NCBI GenBank assembly: GCA_048213135.1
Contig: PS015169.1
Location: 1-53,793, forward strand
Direction: 5' to 3'
Source of the DNA: Reclinomonas americana ATCC 50394
Lineage: Eukaryota
DNA length: 53,793 nt
Shown here piece by piece: positions 7,291 through 53,793 of this stretch; within the stretch, counting starts at the first letter, position 1; each line of letters begins with the position of its first letter. The notes below the pieces were generated by a model. That model was given only the letters and a program-made list of their open reading frames with translations, was not told where the DNA came from and made no database searches. Position numbers and translations under genes: made by a program.

Positions 7291-13474
<6,184 letters not shown>

Positions 13475-36200: not shown

Positions 36201-39200
36201 ATCGGCCAGTCTCATTCGCCCGCTGCCTCGAGAGTCTCGCTCGGCCTCGTTGTCGGGGGCGGCCGTGGCAGCGGCCGTGGCCATGGGACTCGGCTCGGCA
36301 AGGCGAGATTCGGTGCGCACACACGAGCAGGGTGCATCGCACGCCCAGATGAACGCGACAGCGAGTCCGCTCGGCTCGCCAGCATCCTCGGTGCAGCAGG
36401 AGCAGCAGAGACTGCGCGAACTGCCACCTGTGCAGCTTCACAAACCCTTCAATGCCGACGCCGCCTGGCGACCCAACGTGCCCGTACCGCCGCAGTCACG
36501 CAGAACTTCGGTGGTTTCGGCGGCGGCTCCGAGCTGCGCCGTCCCCGCAGCGGTGGACTTGGCGAAGGCTCTCCAAGACGCGGCCGACATGGAGGCGCTG
36601 GAGGAGTCCAACACCTCGTGGCTGTCGCACCACTTGCAGCAGCTGCCGTCGATGGGTGCCAATGGTGTCGCCGTCAGCGATGACTTGGACTCGGACGACG
36701 ACATGGCGGCGCGCGAGGTGGCCGGCCGCATGTCGACGCCGTTGATGGCTGCGCCCAATGGCATTCTGAGTCCGGTGCAGGCTGCAATCTCGACAGCACC
36801 GTCGGCATCCAGCAGCGCGGCCACCTCCCAGTCTCCCAAGCTCACAGGCATTGTGCGGCCGGCATCACATTACGGCCTGCTTGCCGGAAGCGCGAACGGT
36901 GTGGCGGACGACCTGAACGGCACCGACAGTTCCCTTCGTCGGCCGTCTGCGTCGATGGAGGCAGCGGCTGCAGGTCTCGGCGTCGCCGCGCTTTCCGATG
37001 ATGTGCCGACTGCAGAGCTTGTGCCGCGGGTGGTTGGTGCTCGGCGAGGAGGCAGGTGGTGGGGTGGCAGACACGCTGGTGGCGCCGGCAGGCGAACACA
37101 ATCATCCGTGCCTGCCGTAGAGTCGCTGGATCGCGAAAGCCGACGTTCGAGTGTCGCTCAACCGCTACCACCGCTACGTCTCTCCGTGGGCGGAGACACC
37201 GAGAGCGCGGCAGTCGGTCCCGGTGAAGTCGCAGGCCGTCGTATGTCGGCCAGTCACGCCGCCATGGCTCGAGCCAACGAGGACGCCATGTCGATCAGTG
37301 GTGGCGGCGGCGACATGGTGGGAGCACACACGCTCATCGACCGTCTGGTACGCACCAGAAGCGGTGGTCGTCGTGTGACGCAGAACTTGGGCAGAGGGAC
37401 CGACGACAGCGATGCGAACAATGGTGACGACAGCGATGTCGAGGATGGCAGGTTTGTGCTTCGACAGAACCGCGGAATGCGCCACAATCAGCAACGCAGC
37501 AAGCACACGGCTCACGCACGATCGGCGACGATGCCTGGTGTTCCTTCGTCGCGCGACCTTGCTCTCGACTTTATAGACTCGCCGACTGGCAGGGGTGTCG
37601 GTGTTGGCGGAATGGGTGGCGCAGGAGTCGCTGCTGGTGGTGTTGCTGGTGGAGTCAGCAGCGGTGGGACGCCCGTCACCTTTGCCAACGACACGCAGAC
37701 CAGCGGCGGTGGCGGTGGCGGGTTGCGCGGGCTGGCCCCGCAGGTCAGCATCGACCTGACACCCTCCACCGCCACTGGTATTCCGTTGTCGCCGAACGAG
37801 CAAGACGATGCGGACGATGATGGTCGTCACGGTGCAGATCCAGAGGCCGAAGACATGCAGGTATTTGACCGCATAGTGTGTGATCCGTGGTCCCTTCCTT
37901 TGCTCAATATTGTGAGCCACATCAGAATGCTGGCATGCCACCACGGCTGCAGAGCAAAATGGCCGCGAAGCGTGAGCAGCTGCAGCTGATGACCATCAGA
38001 TCGCGGCTACAGTCGCGCAAGTCCACTGCCGTGTTCCGACTTACCACACAGGCGGTGAGTTGGACGGCGTGACACATGCGGTGGACCACCACCAACTGAT
38101 TTCGTTTTGTGTCACACAGTGGGTCATTGTTCTCGGATTTCTCGCCTTGGCGCTTGCGCTCTTTGTGATGAACCAGAGTGTCATTGAGCAGCAGACGGCG
38201 GGGACTGAGCTGCTGCCTTCGCCACCCACGCCAAGCGGTGATCTAGCACCCTTTGCAGCCTGGGCGGCATTCTTGGTGACAAATTCGCGAGCCGGTGCGT
38301 GCACTCTGTTTGTTCTGCGTTGCATGTGCACGCTTCCTATTCTGCTCACCTCATCTTTCTACCTGGGTAGCTCTCGCCATCTCCGACATGTACACGGACT
38401 TGCTAGCCACCGCCACAATTCAACCATCGGGCCTCTCTCAGTTTGCCGCCACAGCCGCAGCACAGGTTTGTGTCGCATTGTTTTTCTTTGCCAATGAGGA
38501 CTCGATTCCCACTTTTGCGGCCCAACGCAGGTGCAATCCGCGTATCGTTCCTTGCACGCGCTCAGTCTGTCAAGTGAGGCCACGGAAGCACTGGAAAGCA
38601 TGATACCCACTGTGGTGGCTCCTGCTGGCACCGCCACCAGCCCGTCGTATGTGATGACAACGCAACGCCTGTCCAACCTGAAATTCGAGGTTGTGATGGC
38701 CACACAAACGGCGGCAACGGTGCGGGGGAGCGTCAAGGCGTCAACACGCTTCTCTTCTTGATCTTGCTCATCATTGCTTTTGCCATGCAGTGTCTGGCCA
38801 CTGGCAGTGCTGGTGCACTGAGCGACCCGGGGTGCGATGCGGCCGCTCGTCGCGTTTTCTACAATGGCAACGAGTCGCTACAGGCGGAGTTGCACGAAGC
38901 CACCGACGAAATTGGCGACGTGAGTTGAGGTGTTTGGCCATGAACTTAACTCGCCGTTGCTTACACGTGCCGAGGCAATGCAGGCTCTTGCGACGTCGAG
39001 TCGGTCAACCTTTTTGTTCAAAACATTGGCGGCAGCCGGCTCCTCATTGTTGGTACTCATTGGCATCACGCTGATCACCATTCCGTCATTCCGCAGTGCC
39101 ATGCGTGAGCGCCTCAAGTTCCGTTCCTGTATCCCTTATCCCGTGCCACACTCTCATCGACTCATCCGTTCTGTGCTGCGGCGGCAGTGTTATTGCGCTC

Positions 39201-42886: not shown

Positions 42887-45800
42887 ATGAGTCTCTCCTC
42901 ATACTCATCCATCTCCGACAGCAGCAGTGGCACACAATCAACCACCGTCTCCTCCATTCCCGCCAACGCCATGGGCGCCAGTGCATACTCAGGTATCCCT
43001 TCCTCTTCTCATCTTTCCTTGTTTTTCGCGCGCTCTCACTCTCTCTGTGTTTCCCGCGCGCGCGCGCAAAGACGCCACTGTGAACCTCTCCGATGCCACA
43101 GCACCTCCGCGCCACTCTCTCCTCTCAGGCGACTCGCCTCCATCGTACGCGCCTCTGGTCAATCCACTCACCGGGCAAGTCATCAGTCCACTGACTGCGA
43201 CCTCGGCCTCGTTCTCCACTCCTCCTCGGCCTTCCTCTCAACACCACCACCACCACCACCAGCAAAGACCTTCAATGGACTCCACGAGTGATCACATGCT
43301 GAGCGAGGACGATGATGATGATGATGATGATGAAGAGCAACAGCCTCCTGCGCAACTCGAGTACTCGATTGACACATTGTCGCGAGTTGCGTCTCTTTCT
43401 TGTGTTGGTGAGTGGCATTATGTGTTAATGGGTGGATGTGGGGCAGGTGATCCCGGAGGAGTTCTCGTTTGATCAGCAGACGGCGCGGGAACAGCTGTTT
43501 TTGTTGCAGGAGAGGCGCATGGCGAGCTTGGAGGATATGGTGAGGGATCCGTCCAAGCTGGTGACGCCGCCGGAGGGGATGAGGGGGGAGAGAGTGGTGG
43601 TGAGTGGGGGGAAGGGGGGAAGGGGAGAAGGGGAAGGGGGGAAAGGGGGAAGGGGGGCGAAGGGAATGGGAAAGAAACAAGGGAGTCATAGTGGCTCTTC
43701 AAGGCGAGTGCAGCATCAGAGGAGAAGGCGAGGCTGTGTAGGAAGAGCGACTGAGGAATGAGTGAGAGAAGGACTCTGGAGAATGAGGAGAAGCAAGAGA
43801 CAGGGGCAGGGGAGAAAGGGAGAACAGAGAGGAGCTGGGGACTGTTTGTGACCTCCACGGCTGCTTCCCTCTCAGCGTGAGATGATGATGGGCAGTGCAT
43901 CGATTCTCTCCCTTTTCTTCTTTATCTTCTTATTCTTCTTCATCGTCAAGACTCTTGGGAATGAGGAGAAGCAAGAGTGAGTGCAGTAACAGGTGAAGTT
44001 GAGCTGCTGAAAGGGAGAAGGCGAGCGAAGCAGCAGCAGAGCAGACAGGGAGGCTGTGTTGGAAGAGGGGCTGAGGAGTGACTGAGGAGAAGAAAGACTG
44101 TTGGGGAACGAGGAGAAGCAGAGTCAGAAGCAGGGAGTGAGAGATATTGACTGTCGGAGGCGAGCAGGGGAGAAAGGGAGAGCAGCGCAGGGGGGAGCTG
44201 GGGAATGTTTGTGAACTCTACGTCTGATTTCCTCTCAGCGTGAGATTATGATGGACAGTGCATCGTTTGTCTCCCTTGTCTTCTTTATCTTCTTCTTCTT
44301 CTTCTTCTAGACTCTTGGGAATGAGGAGAAGCAAGAATGAGTGCAGGAACAGGTGAAGTTGAGCTGCTGAAAGGGGGGAGGCGAGCGAAGAAGCAGCAGA
44401 GGAGACAGGGACACAACGCAGGAGGAGGGGCTGAGGTGACAGACAGACTATTGGGAATGAGGAGAAGCAGAACAGGTGAAGTGGATGCTGCAGAATGGGA
44501 GAGACACAGAGAGTCTCTGGGAGGCGAGCGAAGCAGTAGCTGAAGAGAACGAGAGGCAGGACCTGGGAATTGTTGACTTAGAGAATGACTCTGGGGGAAT
44601 GAGGAATGGGGCTGCTGAAAGGGACAGAAAGACGGACTCTTGGAGTCACGAGTGCAACAGAGGGGGACAGCGCCCTGTAAGGTTGCAATCGTGTTGACTT
44701 CACGCTGCCTCACAGCTATGGCGCGACTCGGATGCCGGTGCCTCGTCCAACGGCGAGGATCGAAGCGGCAGTGCTGGACGATCGGCGTCGCGGCAACGCG
44801 ATGGCAGCGATTCGGGATCGGTGTGTGGCTGCCGATTGTTGTTTACTGTCGGCGACGACTGCAGTGCTGACGAGTATTTGTGTGCGTGCAGTTGTCATCG
44901 CGGAGCACTCTAGAGGCTGGCGTGCAGACAGACATTTCCGTGTCGCCGGTGGTGAGTCTGTCATTGTGAAACTCCACTGTTCCATCGGCTGCTCTGACAA
45001 CGTGCTCTGTGCTGCAGGCGGTTGCTCCGCTGCCTCCCGCCGTCGGCTCTCCCTCCATGGCGTTCACGCCACCGGCCGACAATAGTCGAGCGCCGCCGTT
45101 CTCCGACCTGCCAAACTTGTCGCCCATTCGGAGGTGGGCAACGAGACTTGCATCGTGAATATCTCGTGTCGCTGATTGTCTCTTGTTTATCGCTCGGGCA
45201 GCGACGGAAGCTCGCCGATCGTGCGTGTACGAACACCGATCTCATCCCCGTGGAATCGCCTGCCGCCTCGTAGTCCCGCACGATGTTGCGTACAAGAAGC
45301 AGTTGTGATGGCACTGCGCCAGATTTTCTCATCATGCTTTCCATCGCAGCTGCTTCTGTCTCGAAACAACTGCGGTTCCAGCTTCCCGACGATCACTCAC
45401 ATACACCACGTTGCGTCCCCGCTCCACCTCACACTCTCCACTCTGTGTGTGACCTGACTCGTGTGTGACTTGCAGCGTCTCCAAACACGCCCTCGCCCGG
45501 ACCAGCACTGGAGTACGGCGGCATGGACGATCGGTCACCACCAAAGCCGTCGCTGAGCCCCGTGGGCGACCCTTTCGGTCTCTCGTCCATGCGTCAAGTG
45601 CAGCAGCTGCAACCGCAGCCGCAGCCGTCACAGTCGCTCTCCGCTTCTGCTGCTCGTCAGTCCACCCTGTGTTCGTGGGACGTGTCGTCTCTGCAGTCAA
45701 TGTCGGTGTCACACGTTCCGCAACCCGGCGTGGACTCGACTTCAATGCATCAGTCGCCTCCGCCACTGCCACCGCGACAGCAACAGCCGGCGCCCCCCGT

Positions 45801-46532: not shown

Positions 46533-48021
46533 TTATTCGTGGTCGGCGGTCGAAACGCAGCCGGGTGAGGTCTGAATCATGCGCTTGCAGCACGACCACT
46601 GCGCGTGAGAGATGGTGAGTAGGCGACTACACAAGAGCGCACTGGAAGCAAGGAATGCGACGCACTCGCTGCAGGGGAGGGACAAGAGAGCGGAGTGAGT
46701 TGCAACGACAAATGCATGAGAATGCAGTTTGGAATACGCAACATACTGCAGTCGGTATCCAACGAGGCGAGACGCAAGAGGGGAAAGGGAAGTGAGTTAA
46801 TGATACAGGAACGCGGGCAAGCAACAGACGCACATTCTGCGATGAGGGCGAGCGATGAGTGGAAAGCGCAGATAATGAAAGGATGAATGCGAGCGTGCAC
46901 GATACCTTCCATTCGCCCGTGTGTCGCACGCACGCTGGATTGGAACGTTCCTGGCCACAGCGCGAGCACTACACGTCGCACACGCATCGCAATGTCAGCA
47001 TGATACGCTATATGTGCGAGACGGCTAGCGAGCGACAAACCGTGCCCGTCGCCGCGCTGCCTCCCGCTGCTGCCGACGATGCTGCAGATGATGACGAGGA
47101 CGATGTTGCCACAGCGGTCACGGTCGGGGGTGCCACTGGCGGGAATGGCTGGTGCGGGGTCAAGAGGGGGGCGGGACTCACGGCCGGTCGTCCCTGATGT
47201 GCATACAAACAAGCGCAGAATGTCAACCGCATGTGGAACAGGAAAACAGCCACACTCGTCTCTTTTGGCACACTCACCAACAGCAGTCTCTCCAGCTGGT
47301 CGGCGGCGCCGGTCGGCGGCTCAGCCACCTTTTCGGGGTTGAGAGTGACGGTCAGTTGGCTGTCGTCGAGAGTGAGGATCATCGGAGCCTGCAGAACCCC
47401 ATGAGCGATCCGTGAGTGCACGATGTCGACGATGGCAGACGCAACTTCGGCCTCCAAATCAGGCTGCACGCAGATCGGTCGGTCGCCGAGTCGGCCCTGG
47501 AATCGCGGCACCGATAGCACGCGGCAAATGCTGTGAAATAGTCAGACAAGGTCTGGATCGCCCCCTCTCTCTCTCTCTCCTCACTCCACGCAACTCGGCG
47601 ACGACGCGATGCACGGTCGGATACAAAATGTCGCCGAGGTGAGGCACGAGAGAGGCCGGTGACAGTGTGGCAAATGATACAGTGTCGACGACCAGCTGGC
47701 CACCAATGCCGGCCGCCTGCATCTCTTGCCGCGCACGCACCAGACTGGACACGTGAGCGGCCAGCGACGGACGCGCCAGCACCAAATGCTCCTTGTCGCC
47801 CTGAATCAGCTGGCTGGCCGGTCCGCGACCAATGTCGTCGCGCAGACTGTTAATGGCGTCGGCCTAAATGAAGGAGAGGAATGAGTTGAGAGGCGGGGGG
47901 AGGTGAGAAAAGGGCAAAACTGGGCGCACCCATTGCTGCGATTCGGCGGCGGTTCGACCTGCAAGGAACAAGAGAGCGCGGGTTGGTGAAAGAGGAGGGA
48001 AAAGGGAGGAGAGAGGAGAAG

Positions 48022-48067
<46 letters not shown>

Positions 48068-49402
48068 ATGCACGTAGTAGGTGCGATCGCCAGTGACCAG
48101 GTGCAGCACAAAGGCGCACCCCGGCAGCGTGTCGGACACCTGCGGTCCGTCGACTTGCACGAGGTCGGTGACGGGGATGCTTCGGCGGGGTTTCGACTGG
48201 GGGGAAGAGATGGGGAATGGGTGGATGAGGGGGAAAGGGAAAGGGATTGGGGCAAAGGGGTAAGGGGAAAGGGGGCGAAGGAAAAGGGAGCGGAGGGGTG
48301 GGGAGAAGAACAAGGAGAAGGGGGAGGAGAACAAGAAGAAGACTGAGAGGAAAAGGAAGAGAAGAAGAAGAATACATGTGAGAACAACAACAACAAGAAG
48401 AAGAAGAAGAAGAAGAAGAAGAGAGAGACGACGTAGAGACGTAGACGNNNNNNNNNNNNNNNNNNNNNNNNNNNNNNNNNNNNNNNNNNNNNNNNNNNNN
48501 NNNNNNNNNNNNNNNNNNNNNNNNNNNNNNNNNNNNNNNNNNNNNNNNNNNNNNNNNNNNNNNNNNNNNNNNNNNNNNNNNNNNNNNNNNNNNNNNNNNN
48601 NNNNNNNNNNNNNNNNNNNNNNNNNNNNNNNNNNNNNNNNNNNNNNNNNNNNNNNNNNNNNNNNNNNNNNNNNNNNNNNNNNNNNNNNNNNNNNNNNNNN
48701 NNNNNNNNNNNNNNNNNNNNNNNNNNNNNNNNNNNNNNNNNNNNNNNNNNNNNNNNNNNNNNNNNNNNNNNNNNNNNNNNNNNNNNNNNNNNNNNNNNNN
48801 NNNNNNNNNNNNNNNNNNNNNNNNNNNNNNNNNNNNNNNNNNNNNNNNNNNNNNNNNNNNNNNNNNNNNNNNNNNNNNNNNNNNNNNNNNNNNNNNNNNN
48901 NNNNNNNNNNNNNNNNNNNNNNNNNNNNNNNNNNNNNNNNNNNNNNNNNNNNNNNNNNNNNNNNNNNNNNNNNNNNNNNNNNNNNNNNNNNNNNNNNNNN
49001 NNNNNNNNNNNNNNNNNNNNNNNNNNNNNNNNNNNNNNNNNNNNNNNNNNNNNNNNNNNNNNNNNNNNNNNNNNNNNNNNNNNNNNNNNNNNNNNNNNNN
49101 NNNNNNNNNNNNNNNNNNNNNNNNNNNNNNNNNNNNNNNNNNNNNNNNNNNNNNNNNNNNNNNNNNNNNNNNNNNNNNNNNNNNNNNNNNNNNNNNNNNN
49201 NNNNNNNNNNNNNNNNNNNNNNNNNNNNNNNNNNNNNNNNNNNNNNNNNNNNNNNNNNNNNNNNNNNNNNNNNNNNNNNNNNNNNNNNNNNNNNNNNNNN
49301 NNNNNNNNNNNNNNNNNNNNNNNNNNNNNNNNNNNNNNNNNNAAGTAGAGAAGACGAAAGAAGAAGAACGTAAGAAGAAGAAAGAACGAAAGAAGAAGAA
49401 GA

Positions 49403-49434
<32 letters not shown>

Positions 49435-50318
49435 AGAAGAAGAAGAAGAAGAAGAAGAAGAAGAAGAAGAAGACGAGAGAAGAAGAAGCAGAAGCAGACA
49501 AAGAGTGCAAGGAGGAGAAGAGAAACAACACTGAGAAGGAGAAGGAGGAGGGGAGGGGGGAGAAGCAGTGGACATCAAAGACAATGAGCGGACAAGAGCA
49601 GCAACTGAGGACTCAACATCCGACTCGCTCTTGAAGTACGACAGATGCGTCGCAGTCAGCACAAAGAAGCGCTCTTTCCACGAGTGAACCACGCGACCTG
49701 GAAGAAAGAAAGGGAGAAATGCAATAATTAGTCACTGTCAGTGAGTGAGTGAGTGAGTGAGTGAGTGAGTGAGTGAGTGAGTGAGTGAGAGAGAGAAGAG
49801 TGAGAGACAGAGTGAGTGAGTGAGAGAGAGAGAGAGGGAGTGAGTGAGTGAGTGAGAGAGAGCAGAGTGTGTGTGAGCGAGCGAGAGAGAGCAGAGTGAG
49901 AGAGGGTGTGTGTGAGTGAGTGAGTGAGTGAGTGAGAGAGAGAAAGAGCAGAGTGTGTGAGTGTGAGAGAGAGAGAGAGCAGAGTGTGTGAGTGAGTGAC
50001 AGTGAGTGAGTGAGTGAGTGAGTGAGTGAGTGAGTGTGTGAGTGAGTGTGTGTGTGTGTGTGAGTGAGTGTGTGAGTGAGTGTGTGTGTGTGTGTGAGTG
50101 AGTGGGTGAGTGAGTGAGAGTGAGTGAGTGAGAGTGAGTGAGTGAGTGAGTGTGTGAGTGAGTGAGTGTGACTGCAGCTCCGAGCATCATTCAGCATCAT
50201 TCATGCAAGACAATAAAGAGAATGATTGACTGTTCCTTTGACACATACCTCGTTTGGTGAGGTTTCCACTCTTAATGGGCTCTTGTTTGCCCTTGAGCGC
50301 GCTTCCCTGTGAGCCCAT
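46533..50318 (-). CDS. Putatively N-myristoylated PH-domain protein with C-terminal Btk-type zinc finger (11 introns, three 3-nt microexons)
   Basis: MGSQGS start at 50318. PH domain: IKSGNLTKRGRVVHSWKERFFVLTATHLSYFKS...RTYYVHGRTAAESQQWADAI. C-terminus: CSRC...RHTGEWKNYRWSCCKRMIQTSPGC. Stop TAA at 46533-46535. An N-gap (48448-49342) lies within an intron. Confidence 0.85.
49738..50172. repeat. (GAGT)n/(GT)n/(GA)n composite microsatellite in PH-gene intron 1
   Basis: Directly visible. Confidence 0.95.
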
Positions 50319-50873: not shown

Positions 50874-53793
50874 TCACTCGTTGTTGGTGTTGGGTGAGTA
50901 TGTTGGGGAGGACGGGGAGTAGGCCGGGCTGCGACGAACAATTCGATGAGCGACATGAAGCGAGAAGGAAGGGGAGGAGAGAGAGTGTGCGTGCAAACCT
51001 CGACGGTGAGTACGCCGGGCTCGACGGGCTGTAGCGAGGTGACGATGGCGAGTAGGCTGGACTCGACGGACTGTAGCGCGGCGATGACGGCCTGTGGAGA
51101 AGAGTGAGTCGACTGCGATAAGCGACGAACGAACTCAATAGCACGCAACGAGTACTGCGGACTCGATGGCGAGTATTGCGGGCTGCAAGGGAAAAGAGAC
51201 GAGTTAGCATACATGGCGCTCTCAGATACGAAGAAGAAGTCACTGCAAGACGAAGAGAGACAAAGCCAACGAATATCACCCGCCCCTCTTTTTCCCTCCC
51301 CACGTACTCACCTCGACGGCGAGTACTGTGGTGAGGCCGGCGAATACTGCGGCGACGCTGGCGAGTACTGCGGTGAGGCTGGCGAGTATTGCGGCGAGGC
51401 CGGTGAATACTGGGGCGATGCCGGCGAGTATTGCGGAGACGAGGGTCCGTGGACCGGCGACGCGGGGGAATACTGAGGCGAGGCCGGACTGCGACCAACG
51501 ACCATCGTAAGAGTGAGAGAGAGGGCTGATTTGAACAGGGAAAAGAAGTGCTTCAAACCTGTACTGTGGACTGGCCGGCGAGTACCGCGGCGATGACGGC
51601 GAGTAGCGCGGTGATGCGGCACCACCGCCAGAGTGATACGGCGAGTACGCAGGACTGCCTGGCATGTAGCCCGGCGACGACGGCGCACTGCACAGAGAGT
51701 CAGTTGAGTGGATTCACGAAAAAACAACCAGAAATCGCAGTCACGCACTGATTCGGTGACGACATGTACGGACTGGAGGCTCCGGCTCCGTAGGGGCTCT
51801 GCGGCGCCGGCGAGAACATGGGGGCGTACGGTGAACCGGCGCCGGGCGTGAACATGACATTGTACGGCGTGCCGCCCGGCGTCTCGGAACCAATGTACGG
51901 AGTCACACCGCCCGGCGAGCGACCCGGCGTGCCCGGCGACATGGGGTAGTCGTACACATTCGAGCCCGACTCGCGCAGCATCATCTCCTCCGGCGGCAGC
52001 TCACCCTCGATGGCGTGGCGCATCTTGTCGAGGTCGAGCAGCAATTCGAAGGCACCCGTGCCTGCACGACAACATCAGATCAATAACCATGTCCCCATTT
52101 TCGCCCATTCCTTCACCCTCTGCACTCACCAATCGGAGCCGTCTTGCCCAGCATGACATTGGCCGACACACCCTTCAGCAAATCCACCTCAGCATACGCG
52201 GCGGCCTTCATGAGAATTTCCACACTCTCCTCGAATGTGGCCTTCATGAGGGGGCCAACGTTGCGCCGGTTGATTCCGTGACGCGTAATGGGCATGTAGC
52301 GGCCGGAGCTGGTCATTGTGTCGCACAGCACGGCCAAGTGGCGGTAGTTCACGTAGAGACCGTAGTTGCTGAGCACGGAACGAATCTCGTTCAGCAGCGA
52401 GCGGCGCGCCGCCTCAATGCCCAGCACCGTAAACATTTGCACAATGTCGTTGCAAATGGTGCGCTTGTGATCCACCATGCGGTGGCTCATGACCTTGAGC
52501 ATGTTGACGCCCTCCGTGTCCAGCACGAACTCCTTGTACTTTTGCTTGACGCCCTTGTCGTCAAACACCTCGCGGTCGGCCTTGCGCATAAACACCTTGC
52601 GAATGCCGTCAACGCCCTTGAGGTACAGGTTGTGGAGCAGGCGCGTTTCGATGCGCTTCAACATCTTCAGAGTCGGGTCGCCCATCGAGCTCTCCATCTC
52701 GTCCATGTCGGCACCGGCGCCCTTCTCCGCCGCACCCGTGTCGTTGATACGGATGCGGAGCACCTGATGGTCGTCGGCGCCCGGGTTCCTCGGGTACACA
52801 ATGTTGAGTGCACTGCCCCATTCGTTGTTGATGCGCGTCGCCACCAGATCAATGTCCATGCCACGGCCGTACAGCGTTTGGCCCTTGATGACCATGCGCA
52901 GCACCCATGGAGACAGGTTGGCCATTGATTCGTCCTGGGTGGGGGGAGGAGGAGGGGGTGGGGAAAGGGAGAGTGAGAGGGGGAGGGTGGGGAAAGGGGT
53001 GGGGAAAGAGAGAGGGAAAGAGGGAGGGGGAGAGAGAGATGGAAAGGGAGAGCGAGGGAGAGAGTGAGAGTAACGGCAAAGAGAGAGGGGGGAGAAGGAG
53101 AGAAATGGAGAAAGAGGGCAGTGAGAGCGCAGAGAAGACGAAAAAATAGAAGAGAAAGGCACGAATGTGAGAACGGGGCAGGGAGGACAGTGCATGCACG
53201 GAGGAGTGAAGCAGAAAATATTCAGAGCACATGCACACAGATCAAGACTGACGAGGGGGAGAGTGACAAAGAGAGATGAAAGGCACGAACGAGAGATAGA
53301 GAAGGTCAGAGAATACTGAGAGCACAGACCAAGACTGACAAGTAGTAAAGAGCTTCTGCACATTCGAAGCCTCACGCACATCATTGAGTTCAGCCCATGT
53401 CTCCACTGCCTCCTTGTCCTCAATGACCACAGTCGAGCGTGGATCGGGGTCGTAAAGAATCTCGGTAAAGGCCACCACGTCACGCAGCACCGTGTACTCG
53501 AGATCGGAGCGCGCGCGAGTCGCCTCTTCGTCGTCGAGCGCAAACTCGTCCTTCAAATACACGTTCATACCACTGGTCTTGACGTGCTGGTTGACGTTGA
53601 TCAATTCCTACAACAACGGAGAGCAACATGAGTTCATGATGGCTAGCTTCTCTGTCTCTCTCTCTCAATCCCCTCTCTCTCTCTCCCTTCCTTTCGCCCA
53701 ATCACGCACCTTCACACGCGGCACACCGAGTGTCACATTCTGCGCCGACACACCAGCCGAGTGGAACGTGTTGAGCGTCATCTGCGTGGCCGG
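50874..53793 (-). CDS. RPB1: RNA polymerase II largest subunit, 3' part including trigger loop and CTD (8 introns in window)
   Basis: [74 protein letters not shown]; ~18 YSPxSPx heptads; stop TGA at 50874-50876. Confidence 0.98.

Follow-up and report, generated by a model that had tools for sequence, protein, structure and literature searches.

The 307 nt separating two coding exons on the minus strand of the analyzed window (the whole 53,793-nt stretch of Reclinomonas americana DNA) are composed of four intron-like units and three isolated codons, AAT, TAT and CGA. The exon located upstream of this region (designated exon A) encodes CSRCGQERSNPACVRHTGEWK, and the one located downstream (exon Z), which is the terminal exon of the gene, encodes WSCCKRMIQTSPGCVSTADHE. 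Judging from the nucleotide sequence, AAT, TAT and CGA are probably genuine tandem one-codon exons that are included in most of the mRNA. The 307 nt would then correspond to four ordinary short introns, rather than one, and the Asn-Tyr-Arg exons would be present in at least the main mRNA of the gene.

Re-reading of the minus strand reproduced, base for base, the layout of exons, introns and microexons that a first-pass annotation had proposed for positions 46599–46905. Exon A (46968–46906, minus strand, as are all of the elements described in this paragraph) ends with TGG AAG and contributes the motif C-x2-C-x8-C-x2-H, plus a Trp placed four residues past that His. It is followed by intron 1 (46905–46837; 69 nt), with a GTATCG(T) donor, an ACTCAT branch-like motif and a CAG acceptor, and by the first 3-nt microexon, AAT (Asn; 46836–46834). 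Downstream of it are located intron 2 (46833–46746; 88 nt; GTGCGT donor), microexon 2, TAT (Tyr; 46745–46743; 3 nt), intron 3 (46742–46669; 74 nt; GTTGCGT donor), microexon 3, CGA (Arg; 46668–46666; 3 nt) and intron 4 (46665–46599; 67 nt; GTGCGT donor). Introns 2, 3 and 4 all contain the ACTCAC motif and end with CAG. Exon Z (46598–46533) begins with TGG TCG TGC TGC and is terminated by a TAA stop codon.

Complete intron signals flank each of the three 3-nt units, which fall within the upper size limit of a microexon (30 nt): an acceptor with a branch motif and pyrimidine tract on one side, and a donor on the other. The distance from the branch-like motif to the end of the intron is 18, 46, 26 and 16 nt for introns 1, 2, 3 and 4, respectively, the value for intron 2 being at the far limit of the range found in the window. 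The pyrimidine content of introns 1–4 is 66–70% (70% in intron 1), compared to 45–54% in the three flanking exons examined. The earlier description of the four units as typical introns of this genome proved accurate within the window: their length, donors, ACTCAC/ACTCAT motifs and CAG acceptors are all as stated, and they resemble other introns of the window. The weakest donor among the four is that of intron 1 (GTATCG).

A search of both strands of the 53.8-kb window with the pattern YAG-N3-GT(T)GCGT yielded four matches, three of which are located within the 307-nt stretch; the fourth (10226, plus strand) is an ordinary donor of the TTC21 gene that is preceded by CAG on the exon side. When the AG and the donor were placed at any other spacing between 0 and 12 nt, 0–4 scattered matches were obtained for each spacing in the window. 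When the 307 nt were shuffled 100,000 times with dinucleotide composition preserved, one strict match was observed in 450 shuffles and two or more in none. With the donor relaxed to GTNNGT or GTNNCGT, three matches were reached by 2 of 100,000 such shuffles. These counts ignore the branch motifs, the intron-typical spacing and the position of the pattern exactly between two coding exons. The signals present in the 307-nt stretch are not accidental.

The lengths of the four units are in agreement with the other introns of the gene. The five remaining introns of the hand-built gene model are 64–108 nt long (donors GTGTGT, GTGCGC, GTTGCGT, GTGAGT and GTTTGT), a range into which units of 67–88 nt fit, while an intron of 307 nt would be an outlier, approximately 3 to 4 times larger than the others. 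This bears on the possibility that the whole region is a single 307-nt intron, in which the internal acceptor/donor pairs are unused decoys or relics and exon A is joined to exon Z, giving H-x7-CC. The direct junction of exons A and Z is also in frame, and another long intron may be present in the same gene around an assembly gap (see below). However, three consensus pairs at intron-typical spacing are not a product of chance and, if unused, would have no reason to persist; moreover, the resulting loop would be three residues short of the BTK spacing. Taken with the size of the putative intron, these observations make a single 307-nt intron very improbable.

The splice signals of the window were characterized using 44 heuristic intron candidates located outside the locus, a set which was chosen by our own regular expressions with an imposed length filter of 55–110 nt and which includes false positives; their median length is 70 nt, with which the 67–88 nt of the four units agree. 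The most common donors among these candidates are GTGCGC (9), GTGCGT (5), GTACGT (4) and GTTTGC (4). GTNTCGT donors occur in three of the 44 (GTTTCGT in two and GTCTCGT in one), and the GTATCGT of intron 1 fits the 7-nt GTNNCGT register. In this set, no position on the exonic side of either splice site carries more than 0.14 bit, so a 3-nt exon loses little signal. Splice-site recognition seems to be intronic, as a 3-nt exon requires.

The 7-nt donor GTTGCGT/GTNNCGT recurs in the window beside the 6-nt donor GTGCGT/GTGCGC. Sites of the 7-nt type were noted at 51149–51092, 47594–47531, 46742–46669 (intron 3), 27685–27604 and 27464–27398 on the minus strand, and at 45410–45475 on the plus strand. 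That GTTGCGT is a true donor is evident from the intron 51149–51092 (minus strand) in the region encoding the C-terminal domain (CTD) of RPB1, whose boundaries are dictated by the heptad reading frame. In the 7-nt donor, one extra base seems to be bulged upon pairing with U1.

Further analyses addressed the origin and structure of the four introns. An introner or recent tandem-duplicate origin was rejected within the window: the introns share no likeness beyond that of shuffled sequences, with between 13 and 226 of 300 shuffles scoring as high or higher in the six pairwise local alignments. Searches of the window for copies of the four introns (blastn-short) returned just chance matches of 11–15 nt. 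No special RNA fold was detected over the 326-nt region that holds the 307 nt (46590–46915; z = −1.67, with 7 of 100 shuffles as good), and no Rfam families were found in the window.

Inclusion or skipping of the three codons can be combined in eight ways, all of which are in frame, and the Cys-Cys pair of exon Z then follows the His of exon A at a distance of 7, 8, 9 or 10 residues. This agrees with the earlier statement that skipping preserves the frame and shortens the His-to-Cys loop. The motif H-x8-aromatic-x-CC-x9-C, previously assigned to the full-inclusion product, was also found, and is equivalent to H-x10-CC-x9-C; it occurs in one of the eight isoforms, namely that with all three codons. 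The zinc ligands of BTK, as given in the available text of PMC3836457, are His143, Cys154, Cys155 and Cys165, i.e. they have the same spacing as the full-inclusion isoform.

Comparison of exon Z alone with the Pfam BTK profile (PF00779) gave a match with an E value of 0.0015 and a score of 18.8 bits, which is under the gathering cut-off of 24 bits. Residues 1–17 of the exon align without gaps to profile positions 12–28 of 30. No match to this profile was obtained for exon A alone. Since exon Z starts at position 12, its Trp is preceded by 11 profile positions; assuming that the profile keeps the BTK numbering, the His of exon A would fall on profile position 3 only upon inclusion of all three codons.

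The Pfam match also bears on the possibility that the gene model itself is wrong and that exon Z lies outside the frame of the zinc motif, because either the frame runs unspliced from exon A or the GTGCGT at 46933 is the true donor. Read without splicing from exon A, the sequence is open from stop to stop for 113 codons (46968–46627, minus strand), passing through introns 1–3 and acquiring a Cys-rich tail. Intron 1, if retained, is in frame and stop-free, and the first in-frame stop is encountered in intron 4; exon Z is left out of frame by such a reading (307 = 3 × 102 + 1). Furthermore, the in-exon GTGCGT together with the acceptor of intron 1 would delimit a 97-nt unit. On the other hand, the stretch is as pyrimidine-rich as introns are, exon Z matches the Pfam BTK profile solely in the splice-reached frame, and reading of the sequence indicates that use of the donor at 46933 would remove the His and cause a frameshift that soon runs into a stop codon. 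The strand is pyrimidine-rich and poor in stops, so that long open frames are frequent on it; the 113-codon reading is most likely a by-product of this composition. An error of this kind in the gene model appears extremely unlikely.

The designation of the C-terminal module as a Btk-type zinc finger, made in the first-pass annotation, holds only in part, most clearly with respect to the ligand spacing upon full inclusion. The module resembles the Btk motif (PF00779) of Tec kinases and GAP1-type RasGAPs in its H-x10-CC-x9-C spacing, in the Pfam match of the terminal exon and in the presence of a PH domain in the same protein. It differs from this motif in the score of exon Z alone, which is under the gathering cut-off, in its additional ligands and in its distance from the PH domain. 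In Tec kinases, the Btk motif immediately follows the PH domain on its C-terminal side and packs against it. No Btk motif in such a position is present in the hand-built model, where the C-terminal helix of the PH domain is at approximately residues 54–65 and the zinc module begins at residue 279 (numbering of the partial model), i.e. about 215 residues lie between them. The additional ligands are C-x2-C-x8-C-x2 ahead of the His and a trailing His five residues past the last Cys.

Altogether, eight ligands are present in the order C, C, C, H, CC, C, H, an arrangement which we take to resemble a shortened, compact CHORD-like module binding two zinc ions. The CHORD domain (PF04968) presumably has the same eight-ligand order (C, C, C-x2-H, CC, C, H), as well as the WSCCKR and C-x2-H-x-G signatures; the loops of the module described here are shorter than those of the CHORD domain. 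Neither exon A nor exon Z matched PF04968 in Pfam at E values up to 10, which is a weak test for segments of 21 residues each. The resemblance to CHORD is a lead only.

The in-frame character of all eight combinations raises the question of whether AAT, TAT and CGA act as combinatorial cassette microexons. Up to eight in-frame isoforms would be produced in this case, with loops of 7 to 10 residues, only some of them zinc-competent. The three internal site pairs all look strong, which favors constitutive use, and in systems where short introns are recognized as units the usual error is intron retention and not exon skipping. Against this stand the donor of intron 1, weaker than the other donors, and the preservation of the frame in eight of eight combinations; in addition, 3-nt cassette exons are known in animals, at least from the examples cited below, and skipping would be mechanistically easy for exons so short, given the steric hindrance at microexons discussed in the available text of PMC10250204. 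Cassette use of the three codons is an unlikely alternative to constitutive inclusion.

In the explanation preferred here, the three codons are predominantly included, and the splice sites of this genome appear to be read almost wholly from intronic signals: (i) a GTGCGT-like or 7-nt GTNNCGT donor, (ii) an ACTCAY or ACTGAC branch motif, (iii) a pyrimidine-rich intron body and (iv) a YAG acceptor. Each 67–88-nt unit could then be defined as an intron whatever the length of the adjacent exon. As a 3-nt exon offers no room for a spliceosome on both of its sides, the introns would have to be removed in succession, the simplest course being co-transcriptional removal in the 5′ to 3′ direction, with each microexon first fused to the growing upstream exon. 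Steric hindrance and ordered splicing have been argued for animal microexons (available text of PMC10250204). At the protein level, the Asn-Tyr-Arg residues would bring the loop that leads from the exon A His to the Cys-Cys pair of the last exon to a length of 10 residues. The C-terminal Cys/His module would thereby acquire Btk-type zinc-knuckle geometry (H-x10-CC-x9-C), and the three residues may complete its zinc-binding loop.

A more far-reaching reading can also be considered, in which the one-codon stack is a splicing-controlled switch: skipping would take the loop from 10 to 7 residues and turn zinc binding on or off. It further assumes that introns are defined by intronic signals alone in this lineage, so that exon length would be effectively unconstrained and one-codon exons could be stacked, and that ultra-microexons are common genome-wide and missing from annotations. 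We regard this combination of assumptions as decidedly doubtful.

Among known systems, human RPS24 contains three consecutive microexons of 3, 18 and 22 bp, which give rise to several isoforms (available parts of PMC12207440 and PMC11162997). The locus described here is similar in having three neighboring microexons, one of which in RPS24 is just 3 nt long. However, as far as these parts of the sources describe it, RPS24 has one single-codon exon, and its microexons are located at the 3′ end, are alternative and function in a vertebrate exon-definition setting; in the present case all three would be 3 nt long, in phase 0, placed between introns of 67–88 nt and situated inside a folded zinc motif.

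Even shorter exons have been identified in plants: the available text of PMC8831610 lists 1-nt exons of APC11 and VPS55, as well as adjacent 5-nt and 12-nt exons in rice, which were validated. These ultra-short microexons share with the units described here a size far below that suited to exon definition and the capacity to adjoin one another; those of plants are spliced accurately and are usually missed by annotation (PMC8831610). According to the same text, the plant exons are confirmed by RNA-seq and RT-PCR, are conserved across land plants and occur with at most two adjacent to each other, whereas the run predicted here comprises three. Single 3-nt microexons have been described in animals, in the region encoding the PH domain of cytohesin-1 (PMC6314551) and in Drosophila homothorax (PMC7392893), in both cases as judged from the available text. 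As in these genes, one codon on its own exon would alter the length of a protein loop. The exons of cytohesin-1 and homothorax are, in these descriptions, single regulated cassette exons, while the present locus would stack three of them, each probably required for the same motif.

The proposed stepwise removal of an intron-sized stretch is also reminiscent of recursive (ratchet-point) splicing, by which long Drosophila introns are removed in several steps at internal acceptor/donor pairs, as outlined in the available text of PMC6110457. In recursive sites the AG and GT abut and nothing remains between them; in the present case the 3 nt between them would be kept in the mRNA, and the individual steps would generate no new donor. 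Strict recursive splice sites were ruled out, as 3 nt part AG from GT at all three sites. A spacing-0 AG/GT pattern has one match in the window, which is not at this locus.

No run of three consecutive one-codon exons was found in the literature search, whose scope was openly accessible main texts. Exons of 1–3 nt and short runs of microexons are already known, and three one-codon exons in a row would represent a new extreme of this known kind. If confirmed by transcripts, the locus would constitute a natural system in which to test what the minimum distance between two sites of spliceosome assembly is, whether a 3-nt exon can be handled by intron definition alone, and whether the introns have to be removed in a fixed order. 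A warning for the annotation of intron-dense protists would also follow from it: the loss of 9 nt is in frame and yields a probably misfolded zinc motif that is invisible to frame checks. The DNA represents a sparsely sampled part of the eukaryotic tree, whose splice-signal rules (e.g. the 7-nt GTTGCGT register) are barely described.

The hand-built model of the host gene comprises 323 codons in a single open frame, which is closed by the TAA codon of exon Z; all of its exons are on the minus strand. Upstream of the modeled exons, on the same strand, lies a further exon, encoding the N-terminal part of the PH domain (49618..49697; …RVVHSWKERFFVLTATHLSYFKSESD) and followed by a GTTGAGT donor; a 26-residue piece of its product matches the Pfam PH family (PF00169) with an E value of 1.6e-4 and a score of 22.6 bits. 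The PH domain is interrupted by an assembly gap inside the gene (a run of N, 48448..49342), which probably hides its middle part. Long microsatellites, namely (CTT)n, (CT)n, (GT)n and (CACT)n, occur in the flanks of the gap (48030–48065 and 49350–50190, minus strand). The first exon of the model is a PH-domain exon (48067..48196; SKPRRSIPVTDLVQVDG…TYYVH), which is in frame and is followed by a 29-nt exon (47930..47958) with introns of 108 and 66 nt on its two sides, which encodes the start of the C-terminal helix of the PH domain (…AESQQW). As exemplified by this 29-nt exon, small exons are routine in this gene.

The remaining part of the model contains a 269-nt exon (47595..47863; ADAINSLRDD…), assigned to no Pfam family and ending at a GTTGCGT donor, a 253-nt exon (47278..47530) and a low-complexity exon rich in Pro, Ser and Ala (47041..47193), after which come exon A, the three codons and exon Z. 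The 253-nt exon includes an optional in-frame intron-like unit of 57 nt (47445–47389), with GTTGCGT, ACTCAC and CAG signals; its length is a multiple of three, it is stop-free and it could be either coding or an intron, i.e. a retained or optional intron. The predicted protein thus consists of a PH domain, some 170 residues without a recognized family, a low-complexity linker and the C-terminal Cys/His module.

Database searches were performed with several parts of this protein. The 93-residue product of the exon at 47597–47863 had no homolog among longer proteins, and no predicted protein containing this 89–93-residue exon was present in the protein collections searched. The sole match of the 89-residue form among 1.84 billion representatives (P0001) was a tandem-repeat protein of 2155 residues, and was rejected as spurious. 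The frame of the last exon (residues 48–87 of the open frame 46536–46796) gave no match at E values up to 10, and phmmer searches of solved structures with exon Z gave none at the same limit. Among metagenome loci, none contained the 93-residue exon or the 50-residue frame ending in exon Z. No paralogous zinc motif was found in the window, in which just chance H..CC strings in non-coding frames were detected. An ortholog or paralog carrying three residues at this place was found in none of the protein, metagenome and window searches, which counts against inclusion of the Asn-Tyr-Arg exons as the best explanation.

Other candidate small exons were encountered in the window. An apparent 6-nt exon at 9147 (plus strand), reported by a scan for tandem units, turned out to be a false positive located inside a coding exon of TTC21. 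Two further candidates are each placed between intron-like units. One, 11 nt long (45274–45284, plus strand), lies in the apparent 5′ leader of a plus-strand gene that is arranged tail-to-tail with the gene containing the microexons; the other, 8 nt long (39097–39104, plus strand), lies in a gene at 38.9–39.2 kb.

The neighboring gene encodes RPB1 (50900–53793, minus strand) and contains short introns inside its heptad tail. The heptads have the form YSPxSPx, in which the first x is A or S and the second Q, R or A. The best database match of this RPB1 is the protein of the jakobid Seculamonas (54% identity over the conserved part), followed by matches with about 47% identity. The source is accordingly taken to be an intron-dense, deep-branching and probably jakobid-like eukaryote. 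The window also encodes a piece of TTC21/IFT139, a HECT domain and two WD40 proteins. The TTC21/IFT139 gene (8500–13300, plus strand) contains many introns of about 65–80 nt, as judged by eye, with GTGCGT, GTTTGC, GTATTA and GTTCGT donors. The presence of this gene, whose product belongs to intraflagellar transport, indicates that the organism is flagellated.
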